From Victivallis vadensis (GTDB lineage: Bacteria > Verrucomicrobiota > Lentisphaeria > Victivallales > GWF2-50-93), in contig CAMCYE010000008.1 in NCBI GenBank assembly GCA_945883805.1, positions 1,240-65,239 on the forward strand: a stretch of DNA of 64,000 nucleotides. The letters are read 5' to 3'. Positions 1 to 45,585 of the stretch are shown here, piece after piece (position 1 is the first letter of the stretch; each line of letters starts with the position of its first letter). The notes below the pieces were generated by a model. That model saw only the letters and a program-made list of their open reading frames with translations. It made no database searches and was not told the DNA's origin. The translations under genes and the position numbers were made by a program.

Positions 1-25
1 CTTGGAAATCTTTCCAAAAAAAATA

Positions 26-349: not shown

Positions 350-428
350 TTTCCCATAGTCTCCTTTTTTTTAATGAGATAAAAAGCTAGCCGCAACTTA
401 TGGTTACATTATGCTTGCTGGAAAAACA

Positions 429-704: not shown

Positions 705-794
705 AAATCTTTCTCCTTTTTACAATCATTATACTAACGAGGTAAAGATTTGGAGAAAATAAAATAAAAATAATTAAAAAATAAATTGCAGACA

Positions 795-822
795 ACAAAA
801 AGGGCTGGATTTAACCAGCCCT
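795..822 (-). terminator. rho-independent terminator after integrase A
   Basis: Hairpin agggctgg-attta-accagccct (801-822), followed on the minus strand by a T-run (plus-strand aaaaa at 796-800), about 30 nt after the int stop. Confidence 0.5.
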
Positions 823-850
823 TAAATGCTCTTAAATACTCTTAAATGAA

Positions 851-2257: not shown

Positions 2258-2320
2258 TATCTTTATTCCTTTATGATTGTTTATAAGCGGATTACAGGTA
2301 AGATAACATTCAAAAAGCAA

Positions 2321-2342
2321 AAAGGTATCATAAAGGTATCAT
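2321..2342 (+). repeat. tandem 11-bp direct repeat AAAGGTATCAT x2 (candidate arm-type integrase sites of element A)
   Basis: Two exact copies at 2321-2331 and 2332-2342, between the int A start and the att fragment. Confidence 0.5.
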
Positions 2343-2384
2343 TTTCTATATTTTGTGCGTATATAGATACGTTCGCAACGTATA

Positions 2385-2416
2385 GGCCACGGGTTCGAGT
2401 CCCGTCAGCTCCACCA
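2385..2416 (+). ncRNA. ssrA: 3'-terminal fragment of a tmRNA (ssrA)-like gene (T-arm, acceptor 3' strand, CCA); att site, not an intact gene
   Basis: ggcc-ACGGG-TTCGAGT-CCCGT-CAGCTCC-A-CCA. The T-arm is canonical. CAGCTCCACCA matches the conserved tmRNA 3' end, with U70 for a G3:U70 pair. No complementary 5' acceptor strand (GGAGCTG) lies upstream. tRNA-Ala cannot be excluded. Confidence 0.6.
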
Positions 2417-2490
2417 TTTTATCTGCAACTGCTTAATTAACAGCACGTTAGCACTTTCCTAAAACTCTTCTCCACCAGTTTCTGCACTTT

Positions 2491-2513
2491 TTTGGTACAA
2501 GTTTGGTACAAGT
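2491..2513 (+). repeat. tandem 11-bp repeat TTTGGTACAAG x2 (candidate arm-type sites, left end of island B)
   Basis: tttggtacaagtttggtacaagt lies 23-45 nt upstream of the integrase B ATG. The same unit occurs x3 at 26765-26796. Confidence 0.6.
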
Positions 2514-2535
2514 CTTGCACCTGGGAAAGGAAAAC

Positions 2536-4170: not shown

Positions 4171-5461
4171 TGAAATTCGACTATGTACGGTTTATCAAAT
4201 GTGTCACTGCGGCCTCAACCCCGGACGATCACGCTAGTGACATTGATAGTGGCTTTTCCTATACACCCCCTACAGGCTCTATTAGAGAGGAATTGGGAAA
4301 ACCGGCATCTACTGTCACCAATGTCACCAACGGGATTGGTTCAGCCTCAGTTCCATATGATGCTGATTATTGTCCGGAAAGTTACCCGACACCGCAACAT
4401 CTGGGTAAAGTTGCCCAGAAGTCTGCCTCGCCAGCGGTAAGCTCTCTACAAAATTTACTTTAACCCTATAGCCGGCGGTGGACTTTAATACAGCTTTTCA
4501 GCATTTAGATGGCGCATTCTTCAAAAGATTTACTTGGAAACAAGTTTTGAGTGGGCAACATTGCCCATTCACATCAGGTTTTCTTTCCCGCCTTTCGCCT
4601 GTTGTTGGAAATGCTTCTGCCCAGAACTGGGTGGAAGTATGAAATAAACAGAATGGAACTTCTGGTCCAATTGAGCCAGAAGTTAAAAACCATGTGTATG
4701 ATTTCTGTCAAAGGGCAGTTTCAAAACCAGCCACTATCTAAGCCATCCGACCGGATATCCAGCTTTCTTAAAGGTGAAATATCTTAATGCACAGGCAGTT
4801 GGCATGCTTTATGCTATTCACATAAATTAATAAACAATTATATCCCCCCTTATAAAGGGGGGATATAATTGGTCTTTATTTGAGAACTGTAAAAAAGGGA
4901 TTGTCAGAAAAGAATAAAAATATTATTAAAAAATCTTCCCTTTGCGGGGACTCCCTTACGGTCGCCCGCAAAGGGACTGAAGAATATAGTAATTACGTGG
5001 TAGTGTTCTCAGCCAGGGAATCCGAAGTGTCTTACGGGCTGAACAAAAACAAGTTCATGAAGTAATTGCCAGTCCTGACAAATATCAGACCATGTATGAT
5101 TGATTTGTTCTCCATCGCCGCTTTTGAATTCCTTTCCAGATTTGTTTTCATTATCTCCGCAGTTGCACCTGATTGAAAGCCAGGAAGTTTCCAGTCAGCC
5201 TGATATCTGAAGCAAACAGCTCAGAGGTCTGCGGAAACGATCATTTTCAGGCATTTTAAGTGACTTGTGACAAAAGAGCGTATAGCTGTCATGAAGTGCC
5301 AGGGAACGGCTTGGTAAAGGTTTTCATAACGGGTAAAATTATTAAAGGGAGCTTGGAACTTTGCAGATATTCACTGCAACGAGCTACAGGTTTTGAAAAT
5401 GATTGAGGCGTTTCTGCAAATCGCGCCAAAATCTTATTAAAATCGTCGCGTCCGCCCAATT

Positions 5462-5480
5462 AAAAGTCTACTATGGTAGA
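5462..5480. promoter_or_regulatory. operator-like palindrome AAAAGTCTACTATGGTAGA (TCTAC-N4-GTAGA), copy 1
   Basis: A near-identical 19-mer recurs at 11621-11639 (one C/T difference). Confidence 0.4.
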
Positions 5481-5505
5481 TCATTGCCAAAGGAAGAGAG
5501 TTTAT

Positions 5506-6030
5506 CTACCTCTCCGAAGCCTTAACTTTACTGATGACCAGCTCTATGATTTTCTTCTTTTCATTTGGATCAAGCCTCATGTAATTGTCCAGCAATAGCT
5601 TCTGGTCGACAGACAGGGCATTCTCCGACAGCACGGCATGATAATCCTCCGGCATCAGCCTGGATATGCTTACATTCAAAGCGTTGCAGATGTTGCGGAC
5701 GTCATCTACCGGTGCAGGCTGCTCTCCTTTCCGGTATTCCATGATCGTGTTTACTGACAGATTGGTTTTTCTGGAAAGCTGGACATTGGATATGTTAAGC
5801 CTAGACATCAGTTCGTCAAGCTGTCTTGAAAAATCATTTATCTGAAGCCATTTCGCAATACAGGGGTAAAGCTTGACCCAGGCATCATCACTGATCGCCT
5901 TTATCTCTCCATTAAGATATCTGGCGATTGTGGCTTGGGTTATGCCGGTTTTTGCGGCAAGTGCCAGTTGGGAGCCTTTTTCCTTTACAGCTCCAGCCAA
6001 TGCGTTTTTGATTTTATTTGTTACTTTCAT
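5506..6030 (-). CDS. XRE-family transcriptional regulator with two HTH domains (repressor-like)
   Basis: Two XRE-type HTH segments: LAAKTGITQATIARYLNGE and LSRKTNLSVNTIMEYRKGEQ. It is divergent from the rightward gene block. Confidence 0.8.
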   Translation of the reverse strand: MKVTNKIKNALAGAVKEKGSQLALAAKTGITQATIARYLNGEIKAISDDAWVKLYPCIAKWLQINDFSRQLDELMSRLNISNVQLSRKTNLSVNTIMEYRKGEQPAPVDDVRNICNALNVSISRLMPEDYHAVLSENALSVDQKLLLDNYMRLDPNEKKKIIELVISKVKASER

Positions 6031-6122
6031 GGTTTCCTTATTATACTTAGAAGAATAGTATAGGTCTGTATCGGCAGTAAGTCAAATAAATTAAATTAAT
6101 ATTACTTGAGCGCTTGAATAAT

Positions 6123-6139
6123 TATACGTGGCACGTATA
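6123..6139. promoter_or_regulatory. 17-bp palindrome TATACGTG-G-CACGTATA in the divergent promoter region (candidate operator)
   Basis: Perfect 8-1-8 inverted repeat between the XRE gene (start 6030) and the rightward ORF (6172). Confidence 0.4.
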
Positions 6140-6171
6140 GTATGCATAGTTATAAATAACATTAGGAGGAA

Positions 6172-6540
6172 ATGAAAATGGAGAAGAAGAAAACAGTGAA
6201 GACAATAAACACCTTTACCATCGAAGCTCTGGCTGACAGTTTGCATTCGATCAAAGCTGAAGAGGAACGTCTCAAAAAACTGATGGTTACAGCCATGAGG
6301 ATGCAAAAGCTCAGTGAAGTGCGTACGGAATCCGGCCTGATCGCATTTGTTGAGGGTCGGGACATGCTGGTCATAAACAAGAAAAAGCTGGAGGAAATAC
6401 TCCTCTTCCGCTTCAAGCTCAAACCGTCCAGGCTAAAGAAGGCCATTGTCGATAGCCATGACAGCAAGTTGGTGGAGGCAAATGTCCGTATCTACAGCGG
6501 TAAAAAATACGCTGGATATACGGCAAGGAAAGCTGCTTAA
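6172..6540 (+). CDS. hypothetical protein
   Basis: 122-aa ORF preceded by AGGAGGA. The second ATG at 6178 is better spaced from the RBS. No recognisable motif. Confidence 0.5.
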   Translation: MKMEKKKTVKTINTFTIEALADSLHSIKAEEERLKKLMVTAMRMQKLSEVRTESGLIAFVEGRDMLVINKKKLEEILLFRFKLKPSRLKKAIVDSHDSKLVEANVRIYSGKKYAGYTARKAA

Positions 6541-6554
6541 AATTAAAGATCGAG

Positions 6555-6571
6555 TGGTTCAGCCTCAGTTC
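6555..6571 (+). promoter_or_regulatory. conserved 17-mer TGGTTCAGCCTCAGTTC containing GTTC-N7-GTTC, 73 nt upstream of dinB
   Basis: An exact second copy lies at 4337-4353. Similarity continues imperfectly for about 13 more nt in both copies. Confidence 0.35.
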
Positions 6572-6643
6572 TATGTAATGATCACGACTCAAAATAAACA
6601 GGAAAATTAATTTAACCCCGGTAACACCGGAAAAAGGAGAGAG

Positions 6644-7861
6644 ATGAAGAAAACAGACAGTATGAACGGTGGCGTGGAATTCGCTGGATCGACAAAAACC
6701 GAAAACAAGATTGAACTTGCGGCTCCGACCGTCGAGACGTTTGTCACAACTGACAGGAAAATAATAGTTGTTGACATGGATGCGTATTTCGCTTCTGTGG
6801 AACAGCGAGACAATCCAGATTTAAAAGGCAAACCTGTTATTGTATGCGAATCACTTGGAAGTCGTGGCGTAGTTTCTACCGCATCGTATGAGGCCAGAAA
6901 GTTTGGCGTCCACTCTGCCATGCCTTTATGGAAAGCGCGACAACTCTGTCCTGAAGGCATATTCCTAGAGGTAAGGATCGATGTCTATAAAATCATATCC
7001 AGCCAAATAAAAAACATCTATCTTGAATACACTGATCTTGTGGAACCAGTCGCTCTTGATGAAGCTTATCTCGATGTTACGGTCAATAAAAAAGGCATTT
7101 CTTCAGCAATTGATCTCGCCGGAGAGATACAGTCACGCATATTTTTCGAGACGAAACTGACGGCTTCTGCTGGTGTGTCTTTCAATATGTTCCTGGCCAA
7201 GCTCGCTTCTGGCATGCACAAACCATCTGGGCTTACAGAAATTACAAAAGACCAAGTTGACAGTTTGATGGACAACTTACCCATCGGCGAGTTCTACGGC
7301 GTTGGCGAGGTGACAGAATCTAAATTTCGTAACATGGGCGTTGAAACTGGAGCCGACTTGAAAAAGCTCTCCTTTGACGATCTGAGCAGGCTCTTTGGTA
7401 AACCTGGGCGGAGCTTCTATAATTTGGTGCGTGGAATAGACGAAAGGGTAGTGGATCCCAACAAGCTACGTAAATCAATTGGCAAGGAGATCACCCTCCA
7501 GGCCGATACGGAGAATGTTGAAGAAATCCTGGATAATCTTGCAACTCTATCTACAGATGTTGAAAAACTTCTTCAAGTTGAAGGTCTTTACGGGCGTACA
7601 ATCACGTTAAAATTGAAATACGGTAATTTCTCTTCGATTACTAGGCAGCAAGCTTTGAAAGAATTTACTGATGATGCAGTAATTTTCTTCAACACCGCTG
7701 TTGGACTCCTGAAAAAGACAAGGGCCGGGGAATGGCCCGTTCGTTTGGTTGGCATAGCGGTTTCAGGGTTTGCCCCGTTACCTGAAAGCGAACCTGCTGT
7801 TTCTGAATCTCCCTCACTATCGGCTACAACGAACATGGAGGTGGCACAGATTACAGCATAG
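6644..7861 (+). CDS. dinB: DNA polymerase IV (Y-family translesion polymerase)
   Basis: IIVVDMDAYFASVEQRDNPDLKGKPVIV, SYEARKFGVHSAMP and LDEAYLDV motifs. RBS AAGGAGAG. The ~40-aa N-terminal extension suggests the true start could be internal. Confidence 0.9.
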   Translation: MKKTDSMNGGVEFAGSTKTENKIELAAPTVETFVTTDRKIIVVDMDAYFASVEQRDNPDLKGKPVIVCESLGSRGVVSTASYEARKFGVHSAMPLWKARQLCPEGIFLEVRIDVYKIISSQIKNIYLEYTDLVEPVALDEAYLDVTVNKKGISSAIDLAGEIQSRIFFETKLTASAGVSFNMFLAKLASGMHKPSGLTEITKDQVDSLMDNLPIGEFYGVGEVTESKFRNMGVETGADLKKLSFDDLSRLFGKPGRSFYNLVRGIDERVVDPNKLRKSIGKEITLQADTENVEEILDNLATLSTDVEKLLQVEGLYGRTITLKLKYGNFSSITRQQALKEFTDDAVIFFNTAVGLLKKTRAGEWPVRLVGIAVSGFAPLPESEPAVSESPSLSATTNMEVAQITA

Positions 7862-8084
7862 TTCAACGTGGTGGGGGTGGTGGGGTTAAACGCCATTTTC
7901 TTAAGACTTTTTGTATATGTGTGTGAAAAAAAGTCTTGGGAAACAGCCCTCTATCCCCACCAAATCTTACTGGAGTTCGACGGCTGGCAAACACAATGAA
8001 ACACTGAAAATCGCAGGATGATAAGAACAAATATGTCGGAAAACATTATGGCAGCGGAGAAACATTAACAACAAAGGAGGCTAT

Positions 8085-9329
8085 ATGCCTACTGTAAAAA
8101 GCAATCAGATCCTCGCCGGCCAGATCGACAACTTCAAGACCCTCGTTGCCAAGGGTGAAATCTTCAAGGGTAAATCCTGTAAGGAACTCTTCTACCGGGG
8201 GTGCAATCTCGGAGACTTCAAGGACATCTCAAGATCCCTAGAAGGTAACGAACATCCGGAAGCTGTCAATCTTCTGGACGCAATCACAAGACATCTGCAA
8301 CCTGATGAGGACGAGCCGCAACCAAGGGAGGAATCTCCTGCCATTCCAAGCTGCCAGGTGCAGATAATCATGACACCTGTCAGTGAACTTGCCCCTCATC
8401 CGCTAGTGAAGGATTTCTATCCTATTGATCCGGAAATGCTGGCATCAATGAGTGAACTGATGAAGGAACGGGGCTATGACCCGCGCTTTCCTATCCAGGT
8501 GTGCATGAAGGACGGGAAATCTTTTGTATGGGACGGCATTACAAGGTTAAAAGCCGCCACAGATGCAGATATAAAGACCGTCCCGGTCATTGTCTCGGAG
8601 TTTTTATCGGACGATGATTTGATGGAGGCGGTAGTGGAAGTACAGCTCCGGAGGAGGAACGCCACGCCAAGGGTAATCATAGCATCAGTTGAGAGGCTTA
8701 TCGACATTGCCGGCAGAAAGGCAAAGGAAAACCAGGGCAGAAGAAACGACCTTCTGGGAACTTCTGGTCCAATTGAGCCAGAAGTTGAATACGGTGGAGC
8801 CAACGAATACATCGCAAAAGTGATTGGCAGGTCGGTGTCTACCGTGAAGCGTATCAAGGAGGTCATCGAGAACCCAACGCTAAAGCAAAAGGTGATGGAG
8901 GGGAAGATTTCACCGAACCAGGCCTATGAATCCCTGCATCCGAAGAAGTCTGACACAGGAAAATGTTCATCAATAATGGCTGAGATTCAGAAGTTTTCCG
9001 GCGGTGAAAATGAAGATGAATCTTCACTGGAATTGAAGACGGCGGAGGATTCAAACGCTGACGTCCAACCTCCTGAAGAAAACACACCGTTTGGAAAGGA
9101 TCATCGTCAGCCCGAGGCATCAGCTGTCAGCTCCGTTGTTGCAGAGAGGCTCGTCAAAGAATCTGATGAGGATACCGATACTATCCGTGTACCGATCAAG
9201 TTCCTCCAGGTCGTCGTCAAATACATATATATCAGCCATGTGCCGGAGCTGATTGATCTTGTAGGCGGCCCCGATTCAGTCGGTGGTAGAATCATCAACG
9301 AGGCTCTGGAAAAGCGGAAAGCTGCATAG
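8085..9329 (+). CDS. ParB-like N-terminal (nuclease/CTPase-fold) domain protein with central HTH-like segment and acidic C-terminal half
   Basis: LAPHPLVKDFYPIDPEMLASMSELMKERGYDPRFPIQVCMKDGKSFVWDGITRLKAA resembles the ParB/Srx fold (the usual GxxR box reads DGITR here). Strong RBS AAGGAGG. Confidence 0.75.
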   Translation: MPTVKSNQILAGQIDNFKTLVAKGEIFKGKSCKELFYRGCNLGDFKDISRSLEGNEHPEAVNLLDAITRHLQPDEDEPQPREESPAIPSCQVQIIMTPVSELAPHPLVKDFYPIDPEMLASMSELMKERGYDPRFPIQVCMKDGKSFVWDGITRLKAATDADIKTVPVIVSEFLSDDDLMEAVVEVQLRRRNATPRVIIASVERLIDIAGRKAKENQGRRNDLLGTSGPIEPEVEYGGANEYIAKVIGRSVSTVKRIKEVIENPTLKQKVMEGKISPNQAYESLHPKKSDTGKCSSIMAEIQKFSGGENEDESSLELKTAEDSNADVQPPEENTPFGKDHRQPEASAVSSVVAERLVKESDEDTDTIRVPIKFLQVVVKYIYISHVPELIDLVGGPDSVGGRIINEALEKRKAA

Positions 9330-9597
9330 GGAGGGGATGCTGATATGAACCGAAACGAAAGGAGAATCATCATGGATTCCTGAGAAAAATGACCGGTTAC
9401 CCTGCGGGCATCAGCCGGAGCATATGTGGTTTGCTTCCAGCCTGAGCCGCAGGGTGCTGCCCGGTCTCACGAACTTGGTCAACAATAATTATGGGGGTGG
9501 GAACTATGGAAGAACCAGATGACAGAGAGCGGTTCAGCATACCGGTTGGCTGAACCGCTCATAAAAACAATACCGGAATAAATAAAAGGAATAAACC

Positions 9598-9816
9598 ATG
9601 TGTTTATCCAGAGATGAAAAAGGCCTTGTCCCTGACAATTCATTCGAGGCGGAGGTTGTTGATGCCGAGGTTGAACCCTATGTGGATACGCTCAGGGGTG
9701 TGACCGATAATTCCTTCGAGGAGGAAGTTATCGATGCAGAGGTCAAGGAATTAAGTGCCGGTGCCCTGCGTGCTTTTTACGAGGCCGAGAGTAAAGCCCT
9801 TGCCATGGCAGGGTAG
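9598..9816 (+). CDS. small acidic protein with internal tandem repeat
   Basis: 72 aa: 18 acidic against 6 basic residues. DNSFEAEVVDAEVEP and DNSFEEEVIDAEVKE are repeated. Confidence 0.4.
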   Translation: MCLSRDEKGLVPDNSFEAEVVDAEVEPYVDTLRGVTDNSFEEEVIDAEVKELSAGALRAFYEAESKALAMAG

Positions 9817-9951
9817 TGAACCAGGACTAACAACAGAAAGTGAGGTGAGCCATATGGATCCTTGAAATTTAATTGAGCGGGGCAACCAAGGGAGCCGGAT
9901 TACACAAGTCTGGCTCCCTCTTTCAAGAAAAATAATATTCAACACATAGGA

Positions 9952-10710
9952 ATGGGGAAACATGAAATGAAAACTATCAAAAGATCGATTGGGAAAAAGG
10001 ATAAGAGTTCAAAGGAAAAGAGGAAGAAGGAAAATGGCTGTCACATAAGGAAGCTGAAAAAAATGCCGCAGGTGGACTACGACGGTCTTTGCAAATGGAT
10101 GTCTGACCTCGTAGACGGGAAGAATCCCGCATGTCCGCCAACCGCTGGGGAGATGGCGGAAGACATGGAAGGTTATTCCTGTGTTCAAGCTGATCCGGAT
10201 GAAGATAAGTTGCCCATAGAGGGCGAAGTTGTGAACCTGTATGATATGCCTGCGCCTTTGGAGGTGATGGAGGACCAGCAATGGTCCGACCTGACAGATG
10301 CTGGCTACAAGCTGGCTGCTACAGGGAAACACATGGCCGGAGAAACTGAATTGACCGGACCTCTGTCGATATATTTTTCCTCAGGAGCGGCGGCTATGAA
10401 GGAAAAGCTGAAGGGCTCCGATGCGGATTTCAATGAAGCTGTCAAAGATATTCTATCCGGAATGGTGGTTGATAATCTGGTCCACTCCCAGTCTGCAAAC
10501 ATGGTGATGATGTCTTTGGAAACTCCGTTCTCCCCCGAATACATGAAGATGCTGAAGACCAGGCATCAGCTGGAGAACCAGGTACTGAAAATAATCGAGA
10601 CGAAACAGCGGCTCACGGCAATTCCTATCCGCATTAGAAACGCCGCCCAGGTCAATGTCGGGCAGGTGCAGCAGGTGGTAAACCACGGCGACGACAGGGA
10701 GGGAGGATGA
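9952..10710 (+). CDS. hypothetical protein (basic N-terminus, acidic centre)
   Basis: 252-aa ORF co-oriented with its neighbours; no recognisable motif. Confidence 0.5.
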   Translation: MGKHEMKTIKRSIGKKDKSSKEKRKKENGCHIRKLKKMPQVDYDGLCKWMSDLVDGKNPACPPTAGEMAEDMEGYSCVQADPDEDKLPIEGEVVNLYDMPAPLEVMEDQQWSDLTDAGYKLAATGKHMAGETELTGPLSIYFSSGAAAMKEKLKGSDADFNEAVKDILSGMVVDNLVHSQSANMVMMSLETPFSPEYMKMLKTRHQLENQVLKIIETKQRLTAIPIRIRNAAQVNVGQVQQVVNHGDDREGG

Positions 10711-10716
10711 TTCTTG

Positions 10717-11226
10717 ATGGCCAGTGCATATATTGAACGGATAGAGAGGAAATACCGAGGACGCAGGCATCCCTATTATTTTCTCACAGTGAGGAAGGGA
10801 AAGATTAGGAAAAGGAAATATATACCTTTCCGGGAAGTTCTCTCAGTGATGGAGGTTCTTGAGATGAACAGGAAAAAGAAACACAAACTTAAACAGGAGA
10901 AGTCTTTCAAGGAACCTATGGAGAAAAACTTTTTCCCGAAGCCTCTGAGGTTCCTGCTGAAATCGGCAGGGTACTCCGTCCGAGGATCGGAGCTGAAGAG
11001 GGGAAGGAATTTCATGTCAAAGTCGGCTGCGAATGTAAGGTTTGAAATGCTGGACAGGGAATCCCAGAAGTTTGTCAGGTCGCCTGCAAACCTCCTCAGG
11101 ATGAACAGCGAGGCCTGCTCGCTTCTGAAGTACAGGAACAGGTGGGGGATAAAAACAAGCTACAATGACTGCATGGCTGAAGTATGCTCTGTAGACCGGA
11201 TTACTGTCATGCCTGCCGTTTCCTGA
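10717..11226 (+). CDS. hypothetical basic protein
   Basis: ATG at 10717 lies 9 nt after GGGAGGA (the ORF track starts at TTG 10714); no recognisable motif. Confidence 0.45.
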   Translation: MASAYIERIERKYRGRRHPYYFLTVRKGKIRKRKYIPFREVLSVMEVLEMNRKKKHKLKQEKSFKEPMEKNFFPKPLRFLLKSAGYSVRGSELKRGRNFMSKSAANVRFEMLDRESQKFVRSPANLLRMNSEACSLLKYRNRWGIKTSYNDCMAEVCSVDRITVMPAVS

Positions 11227-11590
11227 TTTCAAAGACTTGTTCTTTCCCTGAACTGCATAGAAACTGGAATTTTCTCCGATTGATTTTCCTGGAGTGCCTT
11301 TCCAGCAGTTCTGCAATCAGCTTCTCTGTAAGCCTCGGCTCCAGCTTCAATTCAACAGTCTTCAATATCAGTTCCAGCTCCAAGCCTTTGCCACAGCCGA
11401 TTCGCTTGAGCATAGTATCAAACCCTTCACTGACAATCTGCTTAATTTCCCCGGATATGCGGATCGGGACTTTGATGTTCCGCCTATATTTCCTTGCTAT
11501 GCTGCGCTGTGGAAGATCACGGTTAAGGATATGCCGGGCAATGTCCCTGTCCTCCGTCCTGATAACTGAGATGTTCTTATGTGTTTTCAT
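11207..11590 (-). CDS. hypothetical protein
   Basis: 127-aa ORF with no obvious RBS. The operator-like palindrome lies 30 nt upstream. Confidence 0.4.
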   Translation of the reverse strand: MKTHKNISVIRTEDRDIARHILNRDLPQRSIARKYRRNIKVPIRISGEIKQIVSEGFDTMLKRIGCGKGLELELILKTVELKLEPRLTEKLIAELLERHSRKINRRKFQFLCSSGKEQVFEIRKRQA

Positions 11591-11620
11591 AATATTGAGT
11601 ATAATATAGGATACATATTA

Positions 11621-11639
11621 TAAAAGTCTACCATGGTAG
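11621..11639. promoter_or_regulatory. operator-like palindrome AAAAGTCTACCATGGTAGA, copy 2
   Basis: Same 19-mer as 5462-5480. On the minus strand it sits just upstream of TATAAT-like hexamers and the ORF starting at 11590. Confidence 0.4.
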
Positions 11640-11709
11640 AGAATCTGATGTATCCCTTCAAAGAAAAGGGGTGATGTGTGCTTCAGGCGGACGGGATTTG
11701 AAAATGTGA

Positions 11710-12063
11710 TCAGTTCCCCTTCAAGTCCGGCGACTTGTCCGAGGATATCTGGTATCGTTCGAGGATGCGGGGACGGGATTCCAGTTCCCTTTTCCGGTCT
11801 ATGATCACCTGGGAATTATTTTTATCAGCCAATACGACGAATTCGGAATCGGAAAGGCTGACAGCCTTATAAAAGTCCTTGAAATCCCTGATCTTCTTTC
11901 CGTTCACCTCAGTTACCAGCCAGAACGTCAACCCATGATACCCCTTGTTGATTTCATCTGGGAGAGTTTGAATCGCAACCACAGGTTCACGGTAGTCTTC
12001 GGACGGATAGTTACTCAATTCGGCTAACAGGTTTACTGGAGGAGCGTCTTTCTCCCCCCACAT
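11710..12063 (-). pseudogene. PDZ-like C-terminal fragment (probable remnant of a protease/PDZ protein)
   Basis: ...GLTFWLVTEVNGKKIRDFKDFYKAVSLSDSEFVVLADKNNSQVIIDR resembles a PDZ domain. No catalytic domain lies upstream. It overlaps the opposite-strand ORF at 12062. Confidence 0.35.
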
Positions 12064-12862
12064 GCTGGGGAGAATTCCGGTTTTAGGGACAATCGGCACC
12101 ATGGGCTGGGCCGAAATATTGAACCGTGTGTATGGCGGCGATATGATTGCCAGCGGCGATGTTTTAAAGCTGGACATGCACCCCGTCCACGAGCCCGACA
12201 TCCTGTATATATCCGGTGGCCGCGACGGGTTTGGCGAATGCGAAACCAGGAAGGTGTTCCACAGCTGGTATCATTGTGCTCCGGGGTACGATGGTGGCGT
12301 CAGGACGAACTGGTGCGATTTCCATGGCCATAACGGCCGGAAATTCTATCTGCTATATCCTCAAGGCGGACACGGTGAGAACATGCCGTGGGGCGATATA
12401 AACACGATTGTAATGAGGTTTTTCGCGAGAGTCGTAGAAAGGCGCATGAATCATGACAGGTTCATAGCAGAGGCGACCAGTAGAAATTTCATAGGCATTT
12501 CAAACCTGATGAACAACAGGACGCTTGATGAAATCAAATTCGGCAGCCCTAAAGAACACGCACTTCTATGGCCACTGGCATTGCAGAACGGCTGGTTCGC
12601 CATTCAAATTGGCGATACCGGTAAAAGGCTTGGCGTCAAACCAGGGGAGATGCACAACGGCAGCCGGATAGTCGAGCAGGAAGCCAGTGAAGGCTCCGAC
12701 TGTCAACACTGGCGTCCGATACTGTGTGAGGACCGCAGTTTCTCCATTCAGAACAGGGCCGCAAGGCGCTGTCTTGATATGGATTTGGACTCCGGACAAT
12801 ATCTGCAATTATGGGACAACTGGTTCGGATCCAACCAGCGATGGAAACTTATTGGACAATAG
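12062..12862 (+). CDS. ricin-B-lectin (QxW) domain protein, N-terminal part possibly truncated
   Basis: The C-terminal ~100 aa carry QHWRP and QRWKL (QxW) motifs. The N-terminus and start are uncertain because it overlaps the minus-strand ORF. Confidence 0.45.
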   Translation: MLGRIPVLGTIGTMGWAEILNRVYGGDMIASGDVLKLDMHPVHEPDILYISGGRDGFGECETRKVFHSWYHCAPGYDGGVRTNWCDFHGHNGRKFYLLYPQGGHGENMPWGDINTIVMRFFARVVERRMNHDRFIAEATSRNFIGISNLMNNRTLDEIKFGSPKEHALLWPLALQNGWFAIQIGDTGKRLGVKPGEMHNGSRIVEQEASEGSDCQHWRPILCEDRSFSIQNRAARRCLDMDLDSGQYLQLWDNWFGSNQRWKLIGQ

Positions 12863-13082
12863 AAAACTTGAAATGTACTCAGTAAAATAAGGATTAAGCG
12901 AAGTACTTAGGCGGGTATTGACTCCGGCTAAAGTACTTGGCTGACCTGGGTAGGTACTTAATCGGCATTGTTTGTGTCAGTCATTATTGTCATGACGGCG
13001 TTTAGCATTATGTTTTATTTCATAATAAAGAAGGGCGGCAGGCGGTCTTGCAGGAGCAAAACCGCTGTATGAAAGGCAGGAG

Positions 13083-14228
13083 ATGAACACCCGGCAGAAG
13101 TCAATTAAAGCCGATAAGGCCGAACAGGATTATGTACTCCGCGATGCCGTCAAGGCCACTCCGGAGGAATTCCCTGAGCTTTGCCGGATTTTCTCGGACA
13201 TGATGAAGAGGAAACCCTGCGGCAGAAAGCTGACGCTCATGGTCGGGAAAGCTCATTCCGCTGGTGTGGCGGTAATTCAGACACGTCGCACAGGCGTGAT
13301 TCTAATTGACCGCAAGGAAATCCCAATGATGACCGAAGACGAGATGCGCTGCCTGCTTGGTCACGAACTCGGCCATTTTTTTGGAGCTATTAAAATCGAG
13401 AATAAGCCGCAGCCTTGCAACTCTCTTTTTAATGAGAGGTTCCCCCGGCCTCTAATGTATCTGTTTTCTTACCTGTCAGGGCAAATTCTTGCCGACATTT
13501 ATGGCGTCGAGCAATGCCGCTCTACGTTCATCGCGGGTTCGCATTTATCAGAAGGCGACAGCGAAATGGAGGCGCTTTACAGCAATCCCATGGAACCGCT
13601 GCCGGAGAAGTTTTACACTTATTTTGAAGTGGCCTTGAGGATAAAAGCTCTTGGGCTCTTGAATAAGTCGGAATACTTTTACGAACTCATAGGTTCAGAA
13701 CTCCTGGGATTTGGCAGGTGGCAGTTGACTACCGAGGAATACTTCGATAAAATCGGGCATATCTTTGATCCCTACATGAACTTCACCGAGGATGATGGTA
13801 AGGCACTGGGCGTATTTTTAAGTGGGGCGCTGTTCATAGCCGGTTGTAAGGTAAGCGATTTAAGCTGGCGCTCCGAGCTTGACTTGCTGGGAGCATTTGG
13901 TGACCCAGGGGAACTTCTGGTTTACGCTTCCACGGAGGCGGCCTATGAACGTATAGTTGCCGTTGCCGCCAGTATTCACGGCATGAGTCATCCGCTGAAG
14001 AACATTGTCTGGAACACTGTCTGGGACCTGACCTACAAGGACTGGGAGGACAGCGATGAAGCCGAAAGGTTTGACGATTTCATATCAAAGTGCGAGCGGG
14101 GCCAAGCCGTAATGCCTGCTGGGAAACATGAGACTTGTGATGAATACATCCACTGTGACGGCCCTTACTATGCAGATGGTTTCGTATATTATGACGAGAT
14201 ACCCGAAACAGGGACTTCTGTGGCTTAA
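13083..14228 (+). CDS. M48-like HExxH zinc metallopeptidase-domain protein
   Basis: ...SAGVAVIQTRRTGVILIDRKEIPMMTEDEMRCLLGHELGHF follows the M48 pattern (NAFA-like segment, then ...dE..aVlaHElgH). RBS AGGCAGGAG. Confidence 0.55.
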   Translation: MNTRQKSIKADKAEQDYVLRDAVKATPEEFPELCRIFSDMMKRKPCGRKLTLMVGKAHSAGVAVIQTRRTGVILIDRKEIPMMTEDEMRCLLGHELGHFFGAIKIENKPQPCNSLFNERFPRPLMYLFSYLSGQILADIYGVEQCRSTFIAGSHLSEGDSEMEALYSNPMEPLPEKFYTYFEVALRIKALGLLNKSEYFYELIGSELLGFGRWQLTTEEYFDKIGHIFDPYMNFTEDDGKALGVFLSGALFIAGCKVSDLSWRSELDLLGAFGDPGELLVYASTEAAYERIVAVAASIHGMSHPLKNIVWNTVWDLTYKDWEDSDEAERFDDFISKCERGQAVMPAGKHETCDEYIHCDGPYYADGFVYYDEIPETGTSVA

Positions 14229-14391
14229 TTTTTACATGTCACAGCTTTTCTGGTATTGATGTCAGGGCAGGGATTATTAATACTATTCGTTTGTTATATC
14301 ACAATTATACTGATATTTAATTATGGGTGTTTGACCATTGGGAGAAGAGATGGTATTATGAGAAATGGCAGGTGAAACGGGGATAGAAATC

Positions 14392-14410
14392 TGCTACCGG
14401 AATTGCTACC
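14392..14410 (+). repeat. TGCTACC x2 with 12-bp spacing (GGTAGCA on the minus strand); candidate arm-type sites next to the tRNA-Pro relic
   Basis: aatcTGCTACCggaatTGCTACCatg. AATTGCTAC recurs at 28821-28829. Confidence 0.35.
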
Positions 14411-14482
14411 ATGAATATAAGTCATCAGCAGTTTACGCTTGTTTATAAATGAGTCTGGACAGCAGTTGAAGGATGGGCTTAG

Positions 14483-14532
14483 TCAGACTGGGGGTCTGAA
14501 GGCCGCGAGTTCGAATCTCGCCGTCCCGACCA
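14483..14532 (+). tRNA. 3' half of tRNA-Pro(GGG) (anticodon arm to CCA); truncated, att relic
   Basis: TCAGA-CTGGGGG-TCTGA (anticodon GGG), AGGCC, GCGAG-TTCGAAT-CTCGC, CGTCCCG-A-CCA. The C1:G72/A73 type end is typical of tRNA-Pro. The 26 nt upstream cannot form the acceptor 5' strand or the D-arm. Confidence 0.6.
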
Positions 14533-14782
14533 TTTTTTTAGCCCCGCTTTCATCATAAGCCAATCCGCTTCAAGTTTACCTCCTTGATTTTTGAATTCTT
14601 TTGTTCAATGTATTCCAAATATCTTTTCACCGCAAGTGAAAGATTCCGCGCCTTATCCGGTTAGTATGACTGGGAAGATTTTGCACATTGCAGTATAAAA
14701 CATATAATTCGCCTGCGGTGCTTCCGTAGGCGGGTGAAATTTTTGACTCATTGAGCCAATTTCAAAACTGCGGTTTTGACAA

Positions 14783-14820
14783 GCCCTGGTCGCCTTTGGT
14801 GCCGCCGGAGGCGGGTAAAC
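14783..14820 (+). repeat. intergenic repeat module (double mini-hairpin followed by GTAAAC)
   Basis: gccctggtCGCCtttGGTGCCGCCggaGGCGGgtaaac. Same family as 19442, 23166, 34061 and 45586. Confidence 0.7.
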
Positions 14821-14925
14821 AAAACCCTCCATTTTAATCCGCCGCGGCGGATGGAGGGCGAGGCTTGTCCGAGCCGTTTCCTGAGTTTTGAAATTAGCTC
14901 CATTATTTTAAACAGGAGAATTGCC

Positions 14926-19427: not shown

Positions 19428-19441
19428 AAGAACGTAGCACA

Positions 19442-19480
19442 GGCCCTGGTCGCCTTCGGCGCCGCCCAAGGCGGGTAAAC
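19442..19480 (+). repeat. intergenic repeat module (double mini-hairpin followed by GTAAAC)
   Basis: ggccctggtCGCCttcGGCGCCGCCcaaGGCGGgtaaac, 15 nt after the stop at 19427. Confidence 0.7.
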
Positions 19481-19592
19481 ATCTTGCCTGTGTTCTTCGT
19501 CCGGGCATACCGCCCGTTCCATATGAATTAAGAAAGAGAAAGCGACAGGCGGGACGCCTATCCTACATTGCCGGAAAATAAAAGCTTCCACC

Positions 19593-21447: not shown

Positions 21448-23112
21448 ATGAAAAAATATGATGAAACGAGTCTTAGTTCACGTATGTTACGAACTTGGAA
21501 AACCATAAATCCCGTATGCATCTTCGGATTGCTTGCCTTGTTTGCGGCATCGCCGGTCATCGGGCAGGATGCGAATAGGCCGCCACAGGATGAAAACCGA
21601 CCGCAACGCTCGGATTCCGGGCCGGGCAGCAAAGACGGGGCTACCATGGGTGTGCGTGCAGTCATGTCGGAAAACAGGACTCCGACATCGCCGAATCCCG
21701 GACAGACTGTCGGACTGTTTCTCAACACGCCCAAAGCGTTCAAGGGATACACATTATTTGCGCCGAAACACAACAACATCATTTATTTGATCGACAATGA
21801 TGGACGCATCGTCAACCAGTGGAAGAGCTCATATGAGCCTGGTCAGTCGGTACACCTCAAACCCAACGGCAACCTGCTGCATTGCTGCTTCACGAAAAAC
21901 AAAGGATTCACCAGCGGCGGTGAAGGGGGACGTGTCGAAGAATTCGACTGGAACGGGAATCTGATCTGGGAGTTCGAGTATTCGAACGACCAGCATCTCT
22001 CGCATCATGACATCGCGCCGCTGCTGAACGGCAACATCCTTATGCTTGTCGTCGAGAAGAAATCCTATGAGGAAAGCCTCGCCGCCGGTTTCAATCCGGA
22101 CATGCTGCGCGACCGTCAATTGTTTCCGGATTCCATCATCGAGGTGGAGCCGACATATCCCAAGGGCGGAAAGATCGTCTGGGAATGGCGTGTCTGGGAT
22201 CATCTCATCCAGAATTCCGACAAGAACAAACCCAATTACGGCGATATCTCCGCGCATCCGGAATTGATTGACGTTGCCTGCAACGGCCGGCCGGTGCCAG
22301 CGTTCTGGAACCACATGAACTCCATCGCCTACAATCCGAAACTCGATCAGATTGTGCTCAGTGTTCGCGGTTGCAACGAGATTTGGTTTCTCGATCACAG
22401 CACCACAACAAAGGAGGCCGCCAGCCACTCCGGCGGAAAGCACGGCAAAGGCGGAGATCTCATTTACCGCTGGGGAAATCCCGCCGCCTACAAGCGCGGA
22501 ACTGTCGCCGACAAACAGCTTGTCCAGCAGCATGACGCCCAGTGGATTCCCGACGGATATCCCGGCGCGGGCAATGTCACCATATTCAATAACGGTTATG
22601 ATCGCGGCTGGTCAAGCATCGAGGAAATAGTTCCCCCGCTTGATGCAAACGGACGTTACATCCTGGACTCAGGCAAAGCTTACGGTCCGGAAAAACCGGT
22701 CTGGCGCTATGAGACGAAAAACCGCACAGATTTCTTCTCGTCGGAAATATCCGGCGCGCACCGTCTGCCAAATGGAAACACACTGATCTGTGCCGGTGTA
22801 ATCGGCAACCTGTTCGAGATCACGCCTGCCGGTGAGACTGTCTGGCAATATGTGAATCCTATGGTCCGCGGCGGAATTCTGGCGCAGGGGGAGATTCCCG
22901 GGAAAGACATGCGAGGTCATCTCTGGAACGCCGTCTTCAAGATTCACCGCTATGCGCCGGATTATCCCGGACTTGCCGGACGCGATCTCGCTCCAAAAGG
23001 CGTAATTGAGCTGCCGGCCGCACAGAAAGGGAAAACTGGACTTGACAAGGCCGACGCACCAGCCGAGGACCGCGACCGCTTCAGCAGGGGCAAAGGCGGC
23101 CAAAGACCGTAA
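21448..23112 (+). CDS. aryl-sulfotransferase-like (ASST/Arylsulfotran_2-type) beta-propeller protein, paralogue 1
   Basis: Starts 10 nt after the FGE-PEBP stop, with RBS AAGGAG. The pattern is shared with paralogue 2: HHD, VWEWxxxDH, WxHxNS, GGDxxYRxGxPxxY, QHDxxWI and LPNGNTxIC. Confidence 0.6.
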   Translation: MKKYDETSLSSRMLRTWKTINPVCIFGLLALFAASPVIGQDANRPPQDENRPQRSDSGPGSKDGATMGVRAVMSENRTPTSPNPGQTVGLFLNTPKAFKGYTLFAPKHNNIIYLIDNDGRIVNQWKSSYEPGQSVHLKPNGNLLHCCFTKNKGFTSGGEGGRVEEFDWNGNLIWEFEYSNDQHLSHHDIAPLLNGNILMLVVEKKSYEESLAAGFNPDMLRDRQLFPDSIIEVEPTYPKGGKIVWEWRVWDHLIQNSDKNKPNYGDISAHPELIDVACNGRPVPAFWNHMNSIAYNPKLDQIVLSVRGCNEIWFLDHSTTTKEAASHSGGKHGKGGDLIYRWGNPAAYKRGTVADKQLVQQHDAQWIPDGYPGAGNVTIFNNGYDRGWSSIEEIVPPLDANGRYILDSGKAYGPEKPVWRYETKNRTDFFSSEISGAHRLPNGNTLICAGVIGNLFEITPAGETVWQYVNPMVRGGILAQGEIPGKDMRGHLWNAVFKIHRYAPDYPGLAGRDLAPKGVIELPAAQKGKTGLDKADAPAEDRDRFSRGKGGQRP

Positions 23113-23165
23113 CTTTAGTCGCTGGTCGTTAGTCGTCAGTAATTGGTCAATCTTCTGAAACTGCC

Positions 23166-23247
23166 GTTGGTGTTCACGGCCCTGGTCGCACGCCTGAGGC
23201 GCGTAAACCTTAGGCGCTGCCAGAGGCAGGTAAACTTTAGCGTGTCT
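23166..23247 (+). repeat. composite intergenic repeat (GTTGGNGTTCACGGC, two hairpin-GTAAAC modules, then TTTAGCGTGTCT)
   Basis: gttggtgttcacggccctggtcgcaCGCCtgaGGCGcgtaaaccttaggcgCTGCCagaGGCAGgtaaactttagcgtgtct. Homologous to 45586-45648. Confidence 0.75.
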
Positions 23248-23326
23248 TTTTCTTTAAAACTTGGTCACGCGGCCACTTGGAATCTTTTGAAAACTTTGAA
23301 ATTCCTATACTTGAAAAAATATGTTC

Positions 23327-23353
23327 TGTAACTTTGCCTCCCATCAAACGTCT
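23327..23353 (+). promoter_or_regulatory. ECF-type promoter P4
   Basis: TGTAACT 23327-23333, CGTCT 23349-23353; same spacing; upstream of the second ASST-like gene. Confidence 0.6.
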
Positions 23354-23403
23354 ATAACTATAAAATGAACCGTGAACTGAATTGCAACCAAAGGATTCCG
23401 CAT

Positions 23404-26764: not shown

Positions 26765-26796
26765 AGGTACAAGTTTGGTACAAGTTTGGTACAAGT
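26765..26796 (+). repeat. tandem 11-bp repeat GGTACAAGTTT x3 (candidate arm-type sites, right end of island B)
   Basis: aggtacaagtttggtacaagtttggtacaagt. Same unit and orientation as 2491-2513; 62 nt from the right direct repeat. Confidence 0.6.
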
Positions 26797-26857
26797 AAAG
26801 GTGATTTTTGAGACTTTTGGATTAGAGTTTGAGGCTAAATGGTGGAGATGGTGAGCT

Positions 26858-32737: not shown

Positions 32738-32745
32738 GAAAGAAG

Positions 32746-32809
32746 GTGGTACAGGCGTCTCGCCTGTATTGCAGGATTAAAATAAGAACAGGCGAGACGC
32801 CTGTACCAC
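32746..32809. repeat. long palindrome with arms GTGGTACAGGCGTCTCGCCTGT (terminator-like), copy 1
   Basis: Arms of 22 nt separated by 20 nt, 9 nt after the stop at 32737. Each arm also contains ACAGGCG-TCT-CGCCTGT. Confidence 0.7.
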
Positions 32810-32851
32810 TTTATAATCATCTAAGTTATTTTTTTACGAAGGGAAAAAAAT

Positions 32852-34060: not shown

Positions 34061-34098
34061 CACGTGGTCCCCTACGGCGCCGCCATAGGCGAGTAAAC
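34061..34098 (+). repeat. intergenic repeat module (hairpin followed by GTAAAC)
   Basis: cacgtggtcccctacggcgCCGCCataGGCGAgtaaac. Confidence 0.6.
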
Positions 34099-34122
34099 AA
34101 CTTGCCGGCATCCTTTTTAATG

Positions 34123-34188
34123 TGGTACAGGCGTCTCGCCTGTTCTTATTTCTTTCTTCTGGAAGAACAGGCGAGACGCCTGTACCAC
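34123..34188. repeat. long palindrome with arms GTGGTACAGGCGTCTCGCCTGTTCTT, copy 2
   Basis: 26-nt arms share the 22-nt core of 32746-32809 but carry a different loop. Confidence 0.7.
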
Positions 34189-34573
34189 ACTCTTTTAATT
34201 AAAAATGCCTAAACATCCAACTTTGAAATTCCTATACGTAAATTAGGCGACCACCCCAGTCATCCCAGTCATCCGACGGGACAAGTCCGACCATGATATC
34301 CATCATGGCTAACGGGGCAAGAAGGGGCGCAACGTCAGTCGTCAGATGTCAGTCACTGGCTTTTAGGCGTAAACCGCTCCAGTCTCTTCGCGCCCTTCGT
34401 GGTGGAACCGGAGATTTGACTTATAGCGGTGGAAACGCCCATATTGGAAACTTTTTCAAATTACGCTCGAAATTTCACCCAACCGGCTTATATTAGGAGC
34501 CTTTTCGGAATTTTCATTTGAATCAATCAAAAATAAATTTATAAATTTTACGAGTCTACGAGGAAAATTTATC

Positions 34574-35415: not shown

Positions 35416-35485
35416 GTTGGAGTTCACGGCTTTAGCGTGTCTAACCTGTTGAATACGAAGACACACTAAAGTTGTGAACTCCAAC
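35416..35485. repeat. palindromic copy of the repeat-family flank modules (GTTGGAGTTCACGGC-TTTAGCGTGTCT and its inverse)
   Basis: 27-nt arms with a 16-nt loop. It is nested in an outer inverted repeat: gagctgatttcaaaa (35401-35415) and ttttgaaatcagctc (35519-35533). Confidence 0.7.
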
Positions 35486-42941: not shown

Positions 42942-45464
<2,523 letters not shown>

Positions 45465-45585
45465 ACCGAAAAATCTGAATATCCAATATCCAATCCGCCA
45501 CGGCGGAAATTTCCAATGCTAAAGTTTTTTGGAAAGTTATCAGTCATCAGTCATCAGTTATTGGTTATTGGTAAGAGGAAATTAA

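Follow-up and report, generated by a model that had tools for sequence, protein, structure and literature searches.

A 36-base hairpin-forming DNA repeat, near-identical across at least seven bacterial phyla, that inserts cleanly into other repeats

What might explain why a DNA unit of 36 bases, too small to encode anything, stands nearly unchanged in bacteria of several phyla and sits, with exact ends, inside larger repeats that are lineage-specific? The question is raised by a Victivallales (Lentisphaerota) metagenome contig (ENA ERZ27280308, k141_54128), of which a stretch of 64,000 nucleotides (the window) was analyzed; its GyrB is 95-97% identical to proteins named as Victivallales bacterium. 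The initial annotation of the window had described a dispersed, structurally selected family resembling repetitive extragenic palindromic (REP) sequences and miniature inverted-repeat transposable elements (MITEs), and had proposed that it acts as a terminator or mRNA stabilizer or is the target of an unseen REP-associated tyrosine transposase (RAYT). The repeat is real, and it is a hairpin-forming DNA element of 36 bases, CCTGGT-CGCC-NNN-GGCG-CYGCC-NNN-GGCRG-GNAAAC (with GTAAAC as its tail where window coordinates are read), here called the 36-mer. Of the earlier reading, the mobile, dispersed and structured part stands and the terminator or stabilizer part is not supported; what had gone unrecognized is the exact 36-nt unit, its near-identity across phyla, and the nature of its flanks as separate host repeats.

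The window holds five clear copies of the 36-mer and one decayed copy (Table 1), all intergenic, all on the + strand and, by gene calls with Pfam, all in the same direction as the flanking genes. The pattern had no match in 100 shuffles of the window (chance expectation 0), and a covariance model, R1, built from 68 distinct copies (alignment A1) and run on the window without filters, matched these six only, on the + strand, the rest, above E = 1, being reverse-strand echoes or noise. All copies listed initially exist, their coordinates having been off by 1-3 nt at most. The supposed two modules at 23166-23247, however, are in fact a single 36-mer split after CCTGGTCGC by a 19-nt unit, ACGCCTGAGGCGCGTAAAC (23190-23208), which consists of one hairpin followed by GTAAAC. 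Conservation reaches at least 90% at 30 of the 36 positions, with variation mostly in both loops (chiefly positions 12, 13, 23, and 24), and more than 90% of copies have TGGT immediately 5' of hairpin 1.

How far does the family extend? A scan of 185,579 species genomes for the exact 33-nt core found it in at least 118 genome stretches, which bears out the claim of a dispersed family rather than a local duplication. The 36-mer occurs in metagenome-assembled genomes (MAGs) labelled Verrucomicrobiota, Desulfobacterota, Nitrospirota, Kiritimatiellota, Lentisphaerota, Omnitrophota and Planctomycetota. Among the matches listed, and with lineages assigned from record titles, about 50 loci carry the label Verrucomicrobiota (mostly Opitutaceae), about 42 Desulfobacterota, 11 Nitrospirota/Thermodesulfovibrionia, 7 Lentisphaerota, 6 Kiritimatiellota, and 1 each Omnitrophota and Planctomycetota, with 2 in a MAG labelled Pseudomonadota. 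The 36-mer is near-identical across these at least seven bacterial phyla, and the sequence that flanks it is unrelated between lineages. R1 scores over 100 loci are bimodal, with full copies at 45 bits or more and then echoes only. In viral contigs the 33-nt core is rare, with 5 stretches, and no match to it was found among 72,556 plasmids.

Comparison of filled and empty sites shows how the unit is gained or lost. Across all sequence compared, a related empty site in which the 11-nt flanks abut was found for 34 of 141 non-redundant filled sites, and the empty-site matches number 84 at gap 0 vs 7 at all other gaps from -4 to +12 together. Because the flanks abut exactly, each event is a clean 36-nt gain or loss without target duplication, leaving a 1-nt ambiguity at the junction, since the base before the unit and its own last base are both C. 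The unit termini, CCTGG and GTAAAC, are not inverted repeats, and a MITE with terminal inverted repeats and a target duplication is ruled out by the same census. Some copies have ATCGAAC or GTGAAGC to their left and right, which would suggest a 7-nt target duplication, but this was rejected because the flanks are tandem heptamer tracts and gap-0 empty sites prevail. Since flanks differ between copies, the sites are independent insertions. Two filled/empty pairs lie inside the window itself, 35416-35442 vs 45586-45648 and 34128-34142 vs 19436-19492. In the first family, GTTGGAGTTCACGGC and TTTAGCGTGTCT abut at 35416-35442, are separated by a 36-mer at 45586-45648 (flanks 45586-45600 and 45637-45648), and are separated by a 36-mer and a 19-mer at 23166-23247 (flanks 23166-23180 and 23236-23247). 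The REP/MITE-like mobile behavior claimed earlier is borne out by these clean sites. The flank modules had been correctly found to accompany the core, and to form a palindrome of their own at 35416-35485, but they are no part of the element (the palindrome has 27-bp arms, in which GTTGGAGTTCACGGC and TTTAGCGTGTCT are contiguous): they are separate REP-like host hairpins, tagged GTAG, GTGG or GTTG in the window, that hold the insert.

The target is short and asymmetric. Over 73 non-redundant sites, the logo has R at -4, A at -3 (51/73), R at -2, C at -1 (71/73), Y at +1 (64/73) and T at +2 (52/73), a consensus RARC|YT that is often found in the loop of a lineage-specific GTAG-type REP hairpin or in a heptamer tract; the junctions read C|C on the left and C|Y both on the right and in the target. 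Flank stems of at least 7 bp surround 18% of sites, compared with 5% for the shuffled control. A typical host is a hairpin whose loop is of CTTG type, and many hosts have GTAG or GTGG as a same-strand 5' tag, by which they are REPs as PMC3733652 uses the term; insertion sites further include heptamer tracts, GTGAAC|CTGTGAAC being an example. In JAUSID01, an Opitutaceae MAG, the loop sequences of the 36-mer track the flank family, from which it follows that each larger repeat was entered by the unit a single time and carried it along in its own spread. The 36-mers are targets in turn: the window copy at 23189|23190 and a copy in locus L090 (489-548; L-numbers label the loci and contigs compared) are split at C9|C10 by other small hairpin modules, that of L090 being a 24-nt hairpin module which differs from the 19-nt unit of the window and uses the same break point. 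Copies also stack in tandem, with three head to tail at period 36 in L045 and one in the paralogous L057. At the orthologous gyrB-purQ junction, L213 (GyrB 97% identical) has a spacer of 8 nt, whereas in the window heptamer arrays, a host half-repeat and the unit together take up about 350 nt; four relatives totalling 53 kb have no copy of the 36-mer.

Shortened units point to a smaller module. Right-only 19-mers were found seven times and left-only halves zero times, and as all 19-mers begin at the same base, they are a discrete module and not random truncations; judged from its sequence, the 19-mer appears to behave as an insertion module of its own. Two such single-hairpin units (CCGCCAAAGGCGGGCAAGC) lie within about 280 nt of degenerate 8-nt repeats (CCTCYGWC) at L012 2980-3260. 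At L028 7524-7556 (- strand), a palindromic variant, GGTTTACCCGCC-CGCCTGA-GGCGGGTAAACC, in which the GTAAAC tail is mirrored on the left, stands directly upstream of a normal 36-mer.

What structure does selection maintain? Covariation was assessed on alignment A3, comprising 126 sequences with 6-nt flanks, by tests that ignore shared ancestry. Two pairs covary, in keeping with the structural selection proposed earlier. The first, 19-29 in hairpin 2, is C-G in 78 non-redundant copies, T-A in 8, T.G in 2 and C.A in 0 (Fisher p 7e-10); the alternation of CCGCC/GGCGG with CTGCC/GGCAG noted initially is real, but its covariation amounts to this one pair. The second, 6-35, joins the base immediately 5' of hairpin 1 to the penultimate base of the unit, and is T-A in 104 non-redundant copies, C-G in 15, T.G in 3, C.A in 1 and T.C in 3 (Fisher p 6e-6, computed from a metagenome scan for position-32 variants alone, which fixed neither position 6 nor position 35). 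G5-C36 is invariant, and G4 stands opposite a pyrimidine at flank +1 in 84-87% of copies. Together with the 6-35 covariation, these pairings lead to a three-way junction, with a 3-bp closing helix (G4-G5-T6 with A35-C36 and the first flanking base), two triloop hairpins on one strand (stems of 4-5 bp, loops of 3 nt) and a G-N-A-A linker. This junction is favored by DNA folding parameters and disfavored by RNA parameters. With DNA parameters, both mini-hairpins are kept in 102/153 minimum-energy folds, 35 of which are exactly the junction; with RNA parameters they are kept in 0/153, and an extended single hairpin beats the two-hairpin fold in 153/153, by about 3.9 kcal/mol. The extended hairpin, and the kissing of loop 1 with loop 2, found no covariation at 11-25 or 12-24 (alignment A1), and the extended hairpin is contradicted because 19-29 covaries.

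How could such a unit move? The unit is strand-asymmetric with sub-terminal hairpins, lacks inverted termini and duplication, has C|C/T junctions, stacks in tandem, and pairs the bases just 5' of a hairpin with those just before the right junction; these are hallmarks of single-strand transposition by HUH/Y1 enzymes. We therefore rank first, with a probability of about 0.45, the reading of the 36-mer as non-autonomous single-strand DNA that an HUH/Y1 enzyme mobilizes in trans, the enzyme being either a RAYT or one like those of the insertion sequences (IS) IS200/IS605; it is from this anatomy that we infer both the single-stranded intermediate and the class of enzyme. The 36-mer would move as single-stranded DNA, by nicking and joining, and the GGT just 5' of hairpin 1 would be a guide that chooses AC| cleavage sites in the way that GTAG picks C|T for TnpAREP. 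A guide ending in G5-T6 would select A-C|, and A35 C36| is indeed the right end of the unit; the C6 subfamily ends in G35 C36|. Insertion takes place without target duplication between a C and a pyrimidine, often into REP-like hairpin loops or heptamer tracts, and after entry the unit spreads as a passenger of larger repeats; it can also stack head to tail. HUH enzymes offer parallels. IS200/IS605 elements have neither terminal inverted repeats nor direct repeats, and choose their cleavage sites via guides 5' of hairpins (PMC3333891, PMC8266576). Cuts by the TnpAREP of E. coli fall at C|T on either the 5' or the 3' side of a REP, with otherwise low specificity, and its strand transfer yields tandem copies (PMC3333891); in Marinomonas a change from GTAG to GTGG shifts the cut from CT to CC (PMC8266576).

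Several results weigh against this reading. The RAYT proposed in the initial annotation fits the anatomy (no target duplication, C|T/C junctions, guide-like covariation), but its gene was found neither in the window nor in 1.47 Mb of related loci. Gene calls and Pfam show no HUH/Y1 transposase or reverse transcriptase encoded in the window, and no Y1/HUH gene was detected within 2.5 kb of about 200 copies or in the 1.47 Mb of loci, a test that is weak in its tblastn part; the only match to the IS200/IS608 TnpA queries had E = 0.99 and was to a GcvT-GlyA fusion. All-against-all clustering of 5110 open reading frames (ORFs) near copies returned only ABC, NtrC, AraC and sulfatase families and no linked transposase. 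A longer, gene-bearing element between left and right halves was not seen, and no left-only halves were found. Near-identity across phyla is unexpected, because RAYT-associated REPs are normally lineage-specific, and the phylum labels depend on MAG binning. The 6-35 covariation joins the guide position of the left hairpin to the right end, when in IS608 each end owns a guide; among C6 units, flank -2 (A 10, G 4) does not track position 6; and no obvious guide is present in the 19-nt units with one hairpin. Each of the two covarying pairs may, moreover, stand for few events or for one ancestral subfamily split. A stronger version of the HUH/Y1 reading can be put forward only tentatively, and we think it rather doubtful as a whole: that the 36-mer is a complete transposition substrate and the smallest mobile DNA known, whose 3-nt internal guide (GGT with AC|Y) picks both cleavage sites and the target, a parasite of REP loops that would have crossed at least seven phyla with an unlinked HUH-type enzyme family or, less likely, with machinery common to its hosts.

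Might the 36-mer instead be a structured RNA module, such as a terminator, a 3'-end stabilizer or a protein-binding three-way junction, which is selected copy by copy and has spread only within MITEs and REPs? Such a module would suit the co-orientation of the window copies with flanking genes and the position of some of them just past stop codons, the G.U-type intermediates at both covarying pairs, the wobbles in half of the G4/+1 pairs, the GNRA-like G-N-A-A of positions 31-34 with its free position 32, and the small number of decayed copies in the loci. It is nevertheless unlikely. Outside the window, orientation to neighboring ORFs is unbiased (43 co-oriented vs 33 opposite), the five coding insertions checked are all antisense to the gene, and the covariation-supported fold is the RNA minimum in none of the 153 cases, at about 3.9 kcal/mol above it. 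GTAAAC follows the hairpins and the core lacks a T-run; no terminator was called in 23080-23400 or 45400-45900, the prediction at 19469-19491 being a weak call only, from the element tail and its flank. An intrinsic terminator was rejected on these grounds, and the proposed role as terminator or mRNA stabilizer is not supported. Nor is a known RNA family involved, with 0 Rfam matches at gathering thresholds in the window and nothing relevant in 45540-45700 even at E <= 10. An RNA module would, in addition, leave the exact 36-nt insertions in unrelated contexts across phyla unexplained.

Those insertions could be provided for without a dedicated transposase in two other ways. The 36-mer might have no enzyme of its own and serve as a substrate of host machinery (a resident RAYT from the adjacent GTAG REP, a relaxase or Rep protein, or a DNA-binding protein), in which case its conservation would follow from that of the machinery itself or of a host function, a nucleoid or gyrase site for example. 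In geometry, the succession of hairpin, 7 nt and junction resembles the nick sites of HUH relaxases. REPs tagged GTAG or GTGG often hold the unit, with tag and unit on one strand; once bound to a REP, the TnpAREP of E. coli cleaves at any C|T within a span of more than 400 nt in cis (PMC3333891); and a recognition partner shared by the hosts would fit the identity across phyla. Many copies, however, have no REP nearby, being situated in heptamer tracts or coding DNA, a passive passenger is not expected to keep 30/36 positions near-invariant or to covary internally, and the lack of the unit in 53 kb from close relatives speaks against an essential host site, so that we regard this explanation as improbable. 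Alternatively, a reverse transcriptase or polymerase could copy a small RNA or DNA master into nicks, much as telomerase does or by target priming, with ...RARC of the target mimicking the unit end ...AAAC and priming the next round. The likeness of the left flank to the 3' end, the head-to-tail arrays with copy numbers that differ between paralogs, the exclusively 5'-shortened units and the failure to find a linked transposase would all accord with templated insertion. We think it very unlikely: no reverse transcriptase occurs in the window or near copies, the common start base of the 19-mers marks them as a discrete module, loops differ within one array and one genome, which is not expected from a single master, and the 6-35 covariation would have no role. 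That the family reflects chance similarity or local duplication, or is an artefact of assembly or adapters, as could be feared from the fact that every source, the window included, is a metagenome assembly, has next to no likelihood; 0 chance matches are expected, loops vary between copies, flanks are lineage-specific, the assemblies that hold copies come from many studies and assemblers and include contigs of 1.0 and 1.8 Mb, and some copies lie in-frame inside conserved genes.

Some further identities were considered and rejected. A CRISPR repeat of 36 nt (GTTTAC... on the reverse strand) would have spacers, and the copies are single or abut at period 36, with no relevant CRISPR match in Rfam. 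The core motifs of the hammerhead, as an example of a small ribozyme, are absent from the sequence, and the ends do not fit the RYYYAAC/GTTRRRY boxes of an integron attC site (read from the sequence).

Copies elsewhere are not confined to spacers. In-frame copies were found in a RibD deaminase (L095 5073-5108), PheT (L046 509-544), ApbE (L039 780-815) and a loop of a PHO4 transporter (L116 7042-7077), where the read-through element with bits of host repeat adds about 19-38 residues. In a Desulfobacteraceae MAG (L078 2186-2782), the gene for a 121-aa 23S rRNA intervening-sequence protein (PF05635, E = 2.4e-13) lies exactly between two inverted 36-mers, 525 nt apart around this unrelated gene. 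The 11-mer at positions 26-36 of the unit (GGCGGGTAAAC) also ends the T-DNA right border of Agrobacterium (TGACAGGATATATTGGCGGGTAAAC), on which the HUH relaxase VirD2 acts; the match is probably a coincidence. A literature search by sequence string returned only primers and that T-DNA right border, and literature searches gave no description matching the 36-mer.

Within the window, the copy at 14785 lies in the spacer between tRNA-Pro and a metallophosphoesterase gene (gene calls, Pfam), and the other copy-bearing spacers separate a hypothetical gene from an FGE-sulfatase gene, two arylsulfotransferase genes, an alcohol dehydrogenase gene from tpiA, and gyrB from a purQ-like gene. The host hairpins are features in their own right. 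In the DNA fold of 19433-19492, both mini-hairpins lie within the closing stem CACAGGC/GCCTGTG, and empty relatives of this host, ACAGGC|GTCTCGCCTGT, occur at 32752-32766 and 34128-34142. The palindromes that contain them (TGTGGTACAGGCGTCTCGCCTGTTCTT ... inverted), with perfect or near-perfect arms of 25-27 bp, stand just past gene ends and, from their sequence, look like a REPIN-like doublet of a GTGG-tagged REP; a single hairpin related to them lies at 19541-19566. The motif TTTGAAAT recurs at the ends of MITE-like shells (GAGCYRATTTCAAAA inverted pairs at 14752-14767/14886-14901 and 35400-35415/35519-35534) and within the shared 17-mer CTTTGAAATTCCTATAC, which does occur twice as reported, at 23294-23310 and 34221-34237 (1-2 nt off the positions first given); at 23296-23325, TTTGAAAT overlaps a promoter-like match. 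The reported heptamer tracts were confirmed by Tandem Repeats Finder (TRF) at 23115-23140, 34333-34354, 45535-45558 and 45557-45572, among others. Inverted heptamer arrays, (AAATCCG)x4.4 and its complement, with 53-nt arms that are 74% complementary, occupy 50224-50415 in the spacer upstream of an RND efflux operon, and an 11-nt tandem repeat, GGTACAAGTTT, occurs in 2-3 copies at 2483-2520 and 26766-26803, once directly upstream of the second of two integrase genes. These integrase genes, for tyrosine integrases at 851-2257 (-) and 2536-4170 (+), belong to a block of lower GC (0.39-0.48; 1-14400) beside tRNA-Pro (14455-14532), together with an HTH_17/MerR excisionase-like gene, helix-turn-helix (HTH) regulators and a Y-family polymerase (6644-7861), and the block has the look of an integrated island. 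Small toxin-antitoxin genes, for a ParE toxin, a BrnT toxin and partners, are clustered at the right end of the contig (63000-64000; L219 19004-20104).

Table 1. Copies of the 36-mer, host repeats and associated repeats in the window
Feature	Position	Strand	Details
Best copy, CCTGGTCGCC-TTC-GGCGCCGCC-CAA-GGCGGGTAAAC	19445-19480	+	Exact pattern; 61.1 bits; 18 nt past the stop at 19427
Copy with G.T wobble in hairpin 1 (GGTG)	14785-14820	+	Exact pattern; 57.5 bits
Copy of the CTGCC/GGCAG subfamily	45601-45636	+	Exact pattern; 52.9 bits
Degenerate copy, CGTGGTCCCC...GGCGAGTAAAC, both hairpins mismatched	34063-34098	+	2 pattern mismatches; 47.1 bits
Interrupted copy, loop 1 = TTA	23181-23235 (23181-23189 + 23209-23235)	+	Read from sequence; model match 23191-23235, 29.6 bits, positions 7-36; no pattern match
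Decayed copy, CGCCTGCGGTGCTTCCGTAGGCGGGTGAAA	14710-14739	+	Model match 14710-14735, 13.8 bits, positions 7-32; no pattern match
Host REP-like hairpin, GTAG-CA-CAGGC[element]ATCTT-GCCTGTG	19433-19492	+	Read from sequence
Filled host repeat, GTTGGTGTTCACGGC, insert, TTTAGCGTGTCT	23166-23247	+	Sequence
Filled host repeat, GTTGGAGTTCACAGC, 36-nt insert, TTTAGCGTGTCT	45586-45648	+	Sequence
Empty host repeat, inverted doublet (REPIN-like), GTTGGAGTTCACGGC/TTTAGCGTGTCT contiguous in both arms	35416-35485		27-nt arms, 89% complementary; DNA fold z = -8.1
MITE-like shell, inverted ends GAGCYRATTTCAAAA (14752-14767/14886-14901)	14752-14901		Holds the 14785 copy and a further hairpin; DNA fold z = -3.5
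Composite gyrB-purQ spacer: five heptamer mini-arrays, host half-repeat, element	45465-45812	+	Absent from L213; TRF
Heptamer tract TTAGTCG x3.7, upstream of the 23166 composite	23115-23140	+	TRF
Perfect 27-bp-arm palindrome, arms with empty host hairpin ACAGGC|GTCTCGCCTGT	34121-34189		Second copy 32743-32812

How repeats too small to encode anything move has been an open question since the small dispersed repeats (SDRs) of cyanobacteria (2008), and the 36-mer makes it testable. It offers a sharply defined 36-nt substrate whose ends are exact, together with a target logo and a covarying pair that resembles a guide, and these suit oligonucleotide cleavage and joining tests; its patchy spread over several phyla is material for an enzyme search by phylogenetic profiling. 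It is also a case of layered parasitism, a mini-element in the loops of REPs that themselves lie in MITE-like shells, and it can add at least 12 in-frame residues to essential enzymes. For genomics, the family is a marker of recent genome change among close strains and a source of spurious ORFs and of breaks in MAG assembly.

The nearest described phenomenon is the SDRs of Nostocaceae. Elhai et al. (2008) are said to have judged SDR4-6, of 21-27 nt, mobile from their precise presence or absence in conserved or repeated sequence, and those SDRs are reportedly nested in other repeats and near heptamer tandem tracts, with no transposase of their own and the mechanism left open. The likeness lies in a very small unit that is precisely present or absent inside other repeats without duplication. 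The 36-mer differs in its 36 nt, its 19-nt sub-unit, its two hairpins with a closing helix and its RARC|YT target, and also in its hosts, which are the PVC (Planctomycetes-Verrucomicrobia-Chlamydiae) phyla, Desulfobacterota and Nitrospirota. Passages in citing papers have SDR5 inserting precisely between the third and fourth bases of HIP1 (PMC4390886) and speak of SDRs as reported in Nostocaceae only (PMC5861425).

The likeness to REPs and REPINs is that of a short GC-rich hairpin in high copy number, mostly extragenic and occasionally in-frame in genes, as are the REPs of Opitutus terrae (PMC3733652), with tandem copies and with junctions between C and T/C that recall the C|T cut of TnpAREP (PMC3333891); the bases 5' of its hairpin covary with the presumed cleavage-proximal base, like a GTAG guide (PMC8266576). 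Unlike REPs, the 36-mer has no GTAG/CGTC tag (TGGT stands there instead) and has two direct hairpins where a REP has one. It is found singly or head to tail and never as inverted doublets, the inverted pair of L078 being 525 nt apart, and it is near-identical across phyla, whereas REPs are lineage-specific; indeed, it sits in GTAG-type REPs as a guest. A flanked RAYT gene, as in a REPtron, was found neither in the window nor in the 1.47 Mb of loci.

With IS200/IS605 elements and their gene-less derivatives (PATEs), the 36-mer shares the lack of terminal inverted repeats and target duplication, the strand asymmetry, the sub-terminal hairpins at both ends and insertion 3' of a short conserved sequence, and its guide-like pairing recalls their guide-to-cleavage-site complementarity (PMC8266576, PMC3333891). 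Its hairpins, however, are adjacent, its guide-like covariation connects only the left guide position with the right end, its target specificity is loose, and a parental IS with tnpA was not found in the sequence searched. To our knowledge, it is an order of magnitude smaller than any described IS200/IS605 derivative. The Rickettsia palindromic elements (RPEs) are palindromic repeats in-frame within functional protein genes (PMC3733652), reminiscent of the copies in RibD, PheT, ApbE and PHO4, but RPEs are longer and limited to Rickettsia, and copies of the 36-mer are mostly intergenic. Like MITEs such as Correia/NEMIS, RUP and ERIC, the 36-mer is non-coding, dispersed, hairpin-forming and non-autonomous; MITEs, at 70-300 bp, have terminal inverted repeats of 15-30 bp and target duplications, and the 36-mer has neither and rides in the window as a passenger inside the MITE-like shell at 14752-14901. 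In kind, the 36-mer is a very small mobile repeat, REP-like in character, and among the smallest mobile DNAs seen.

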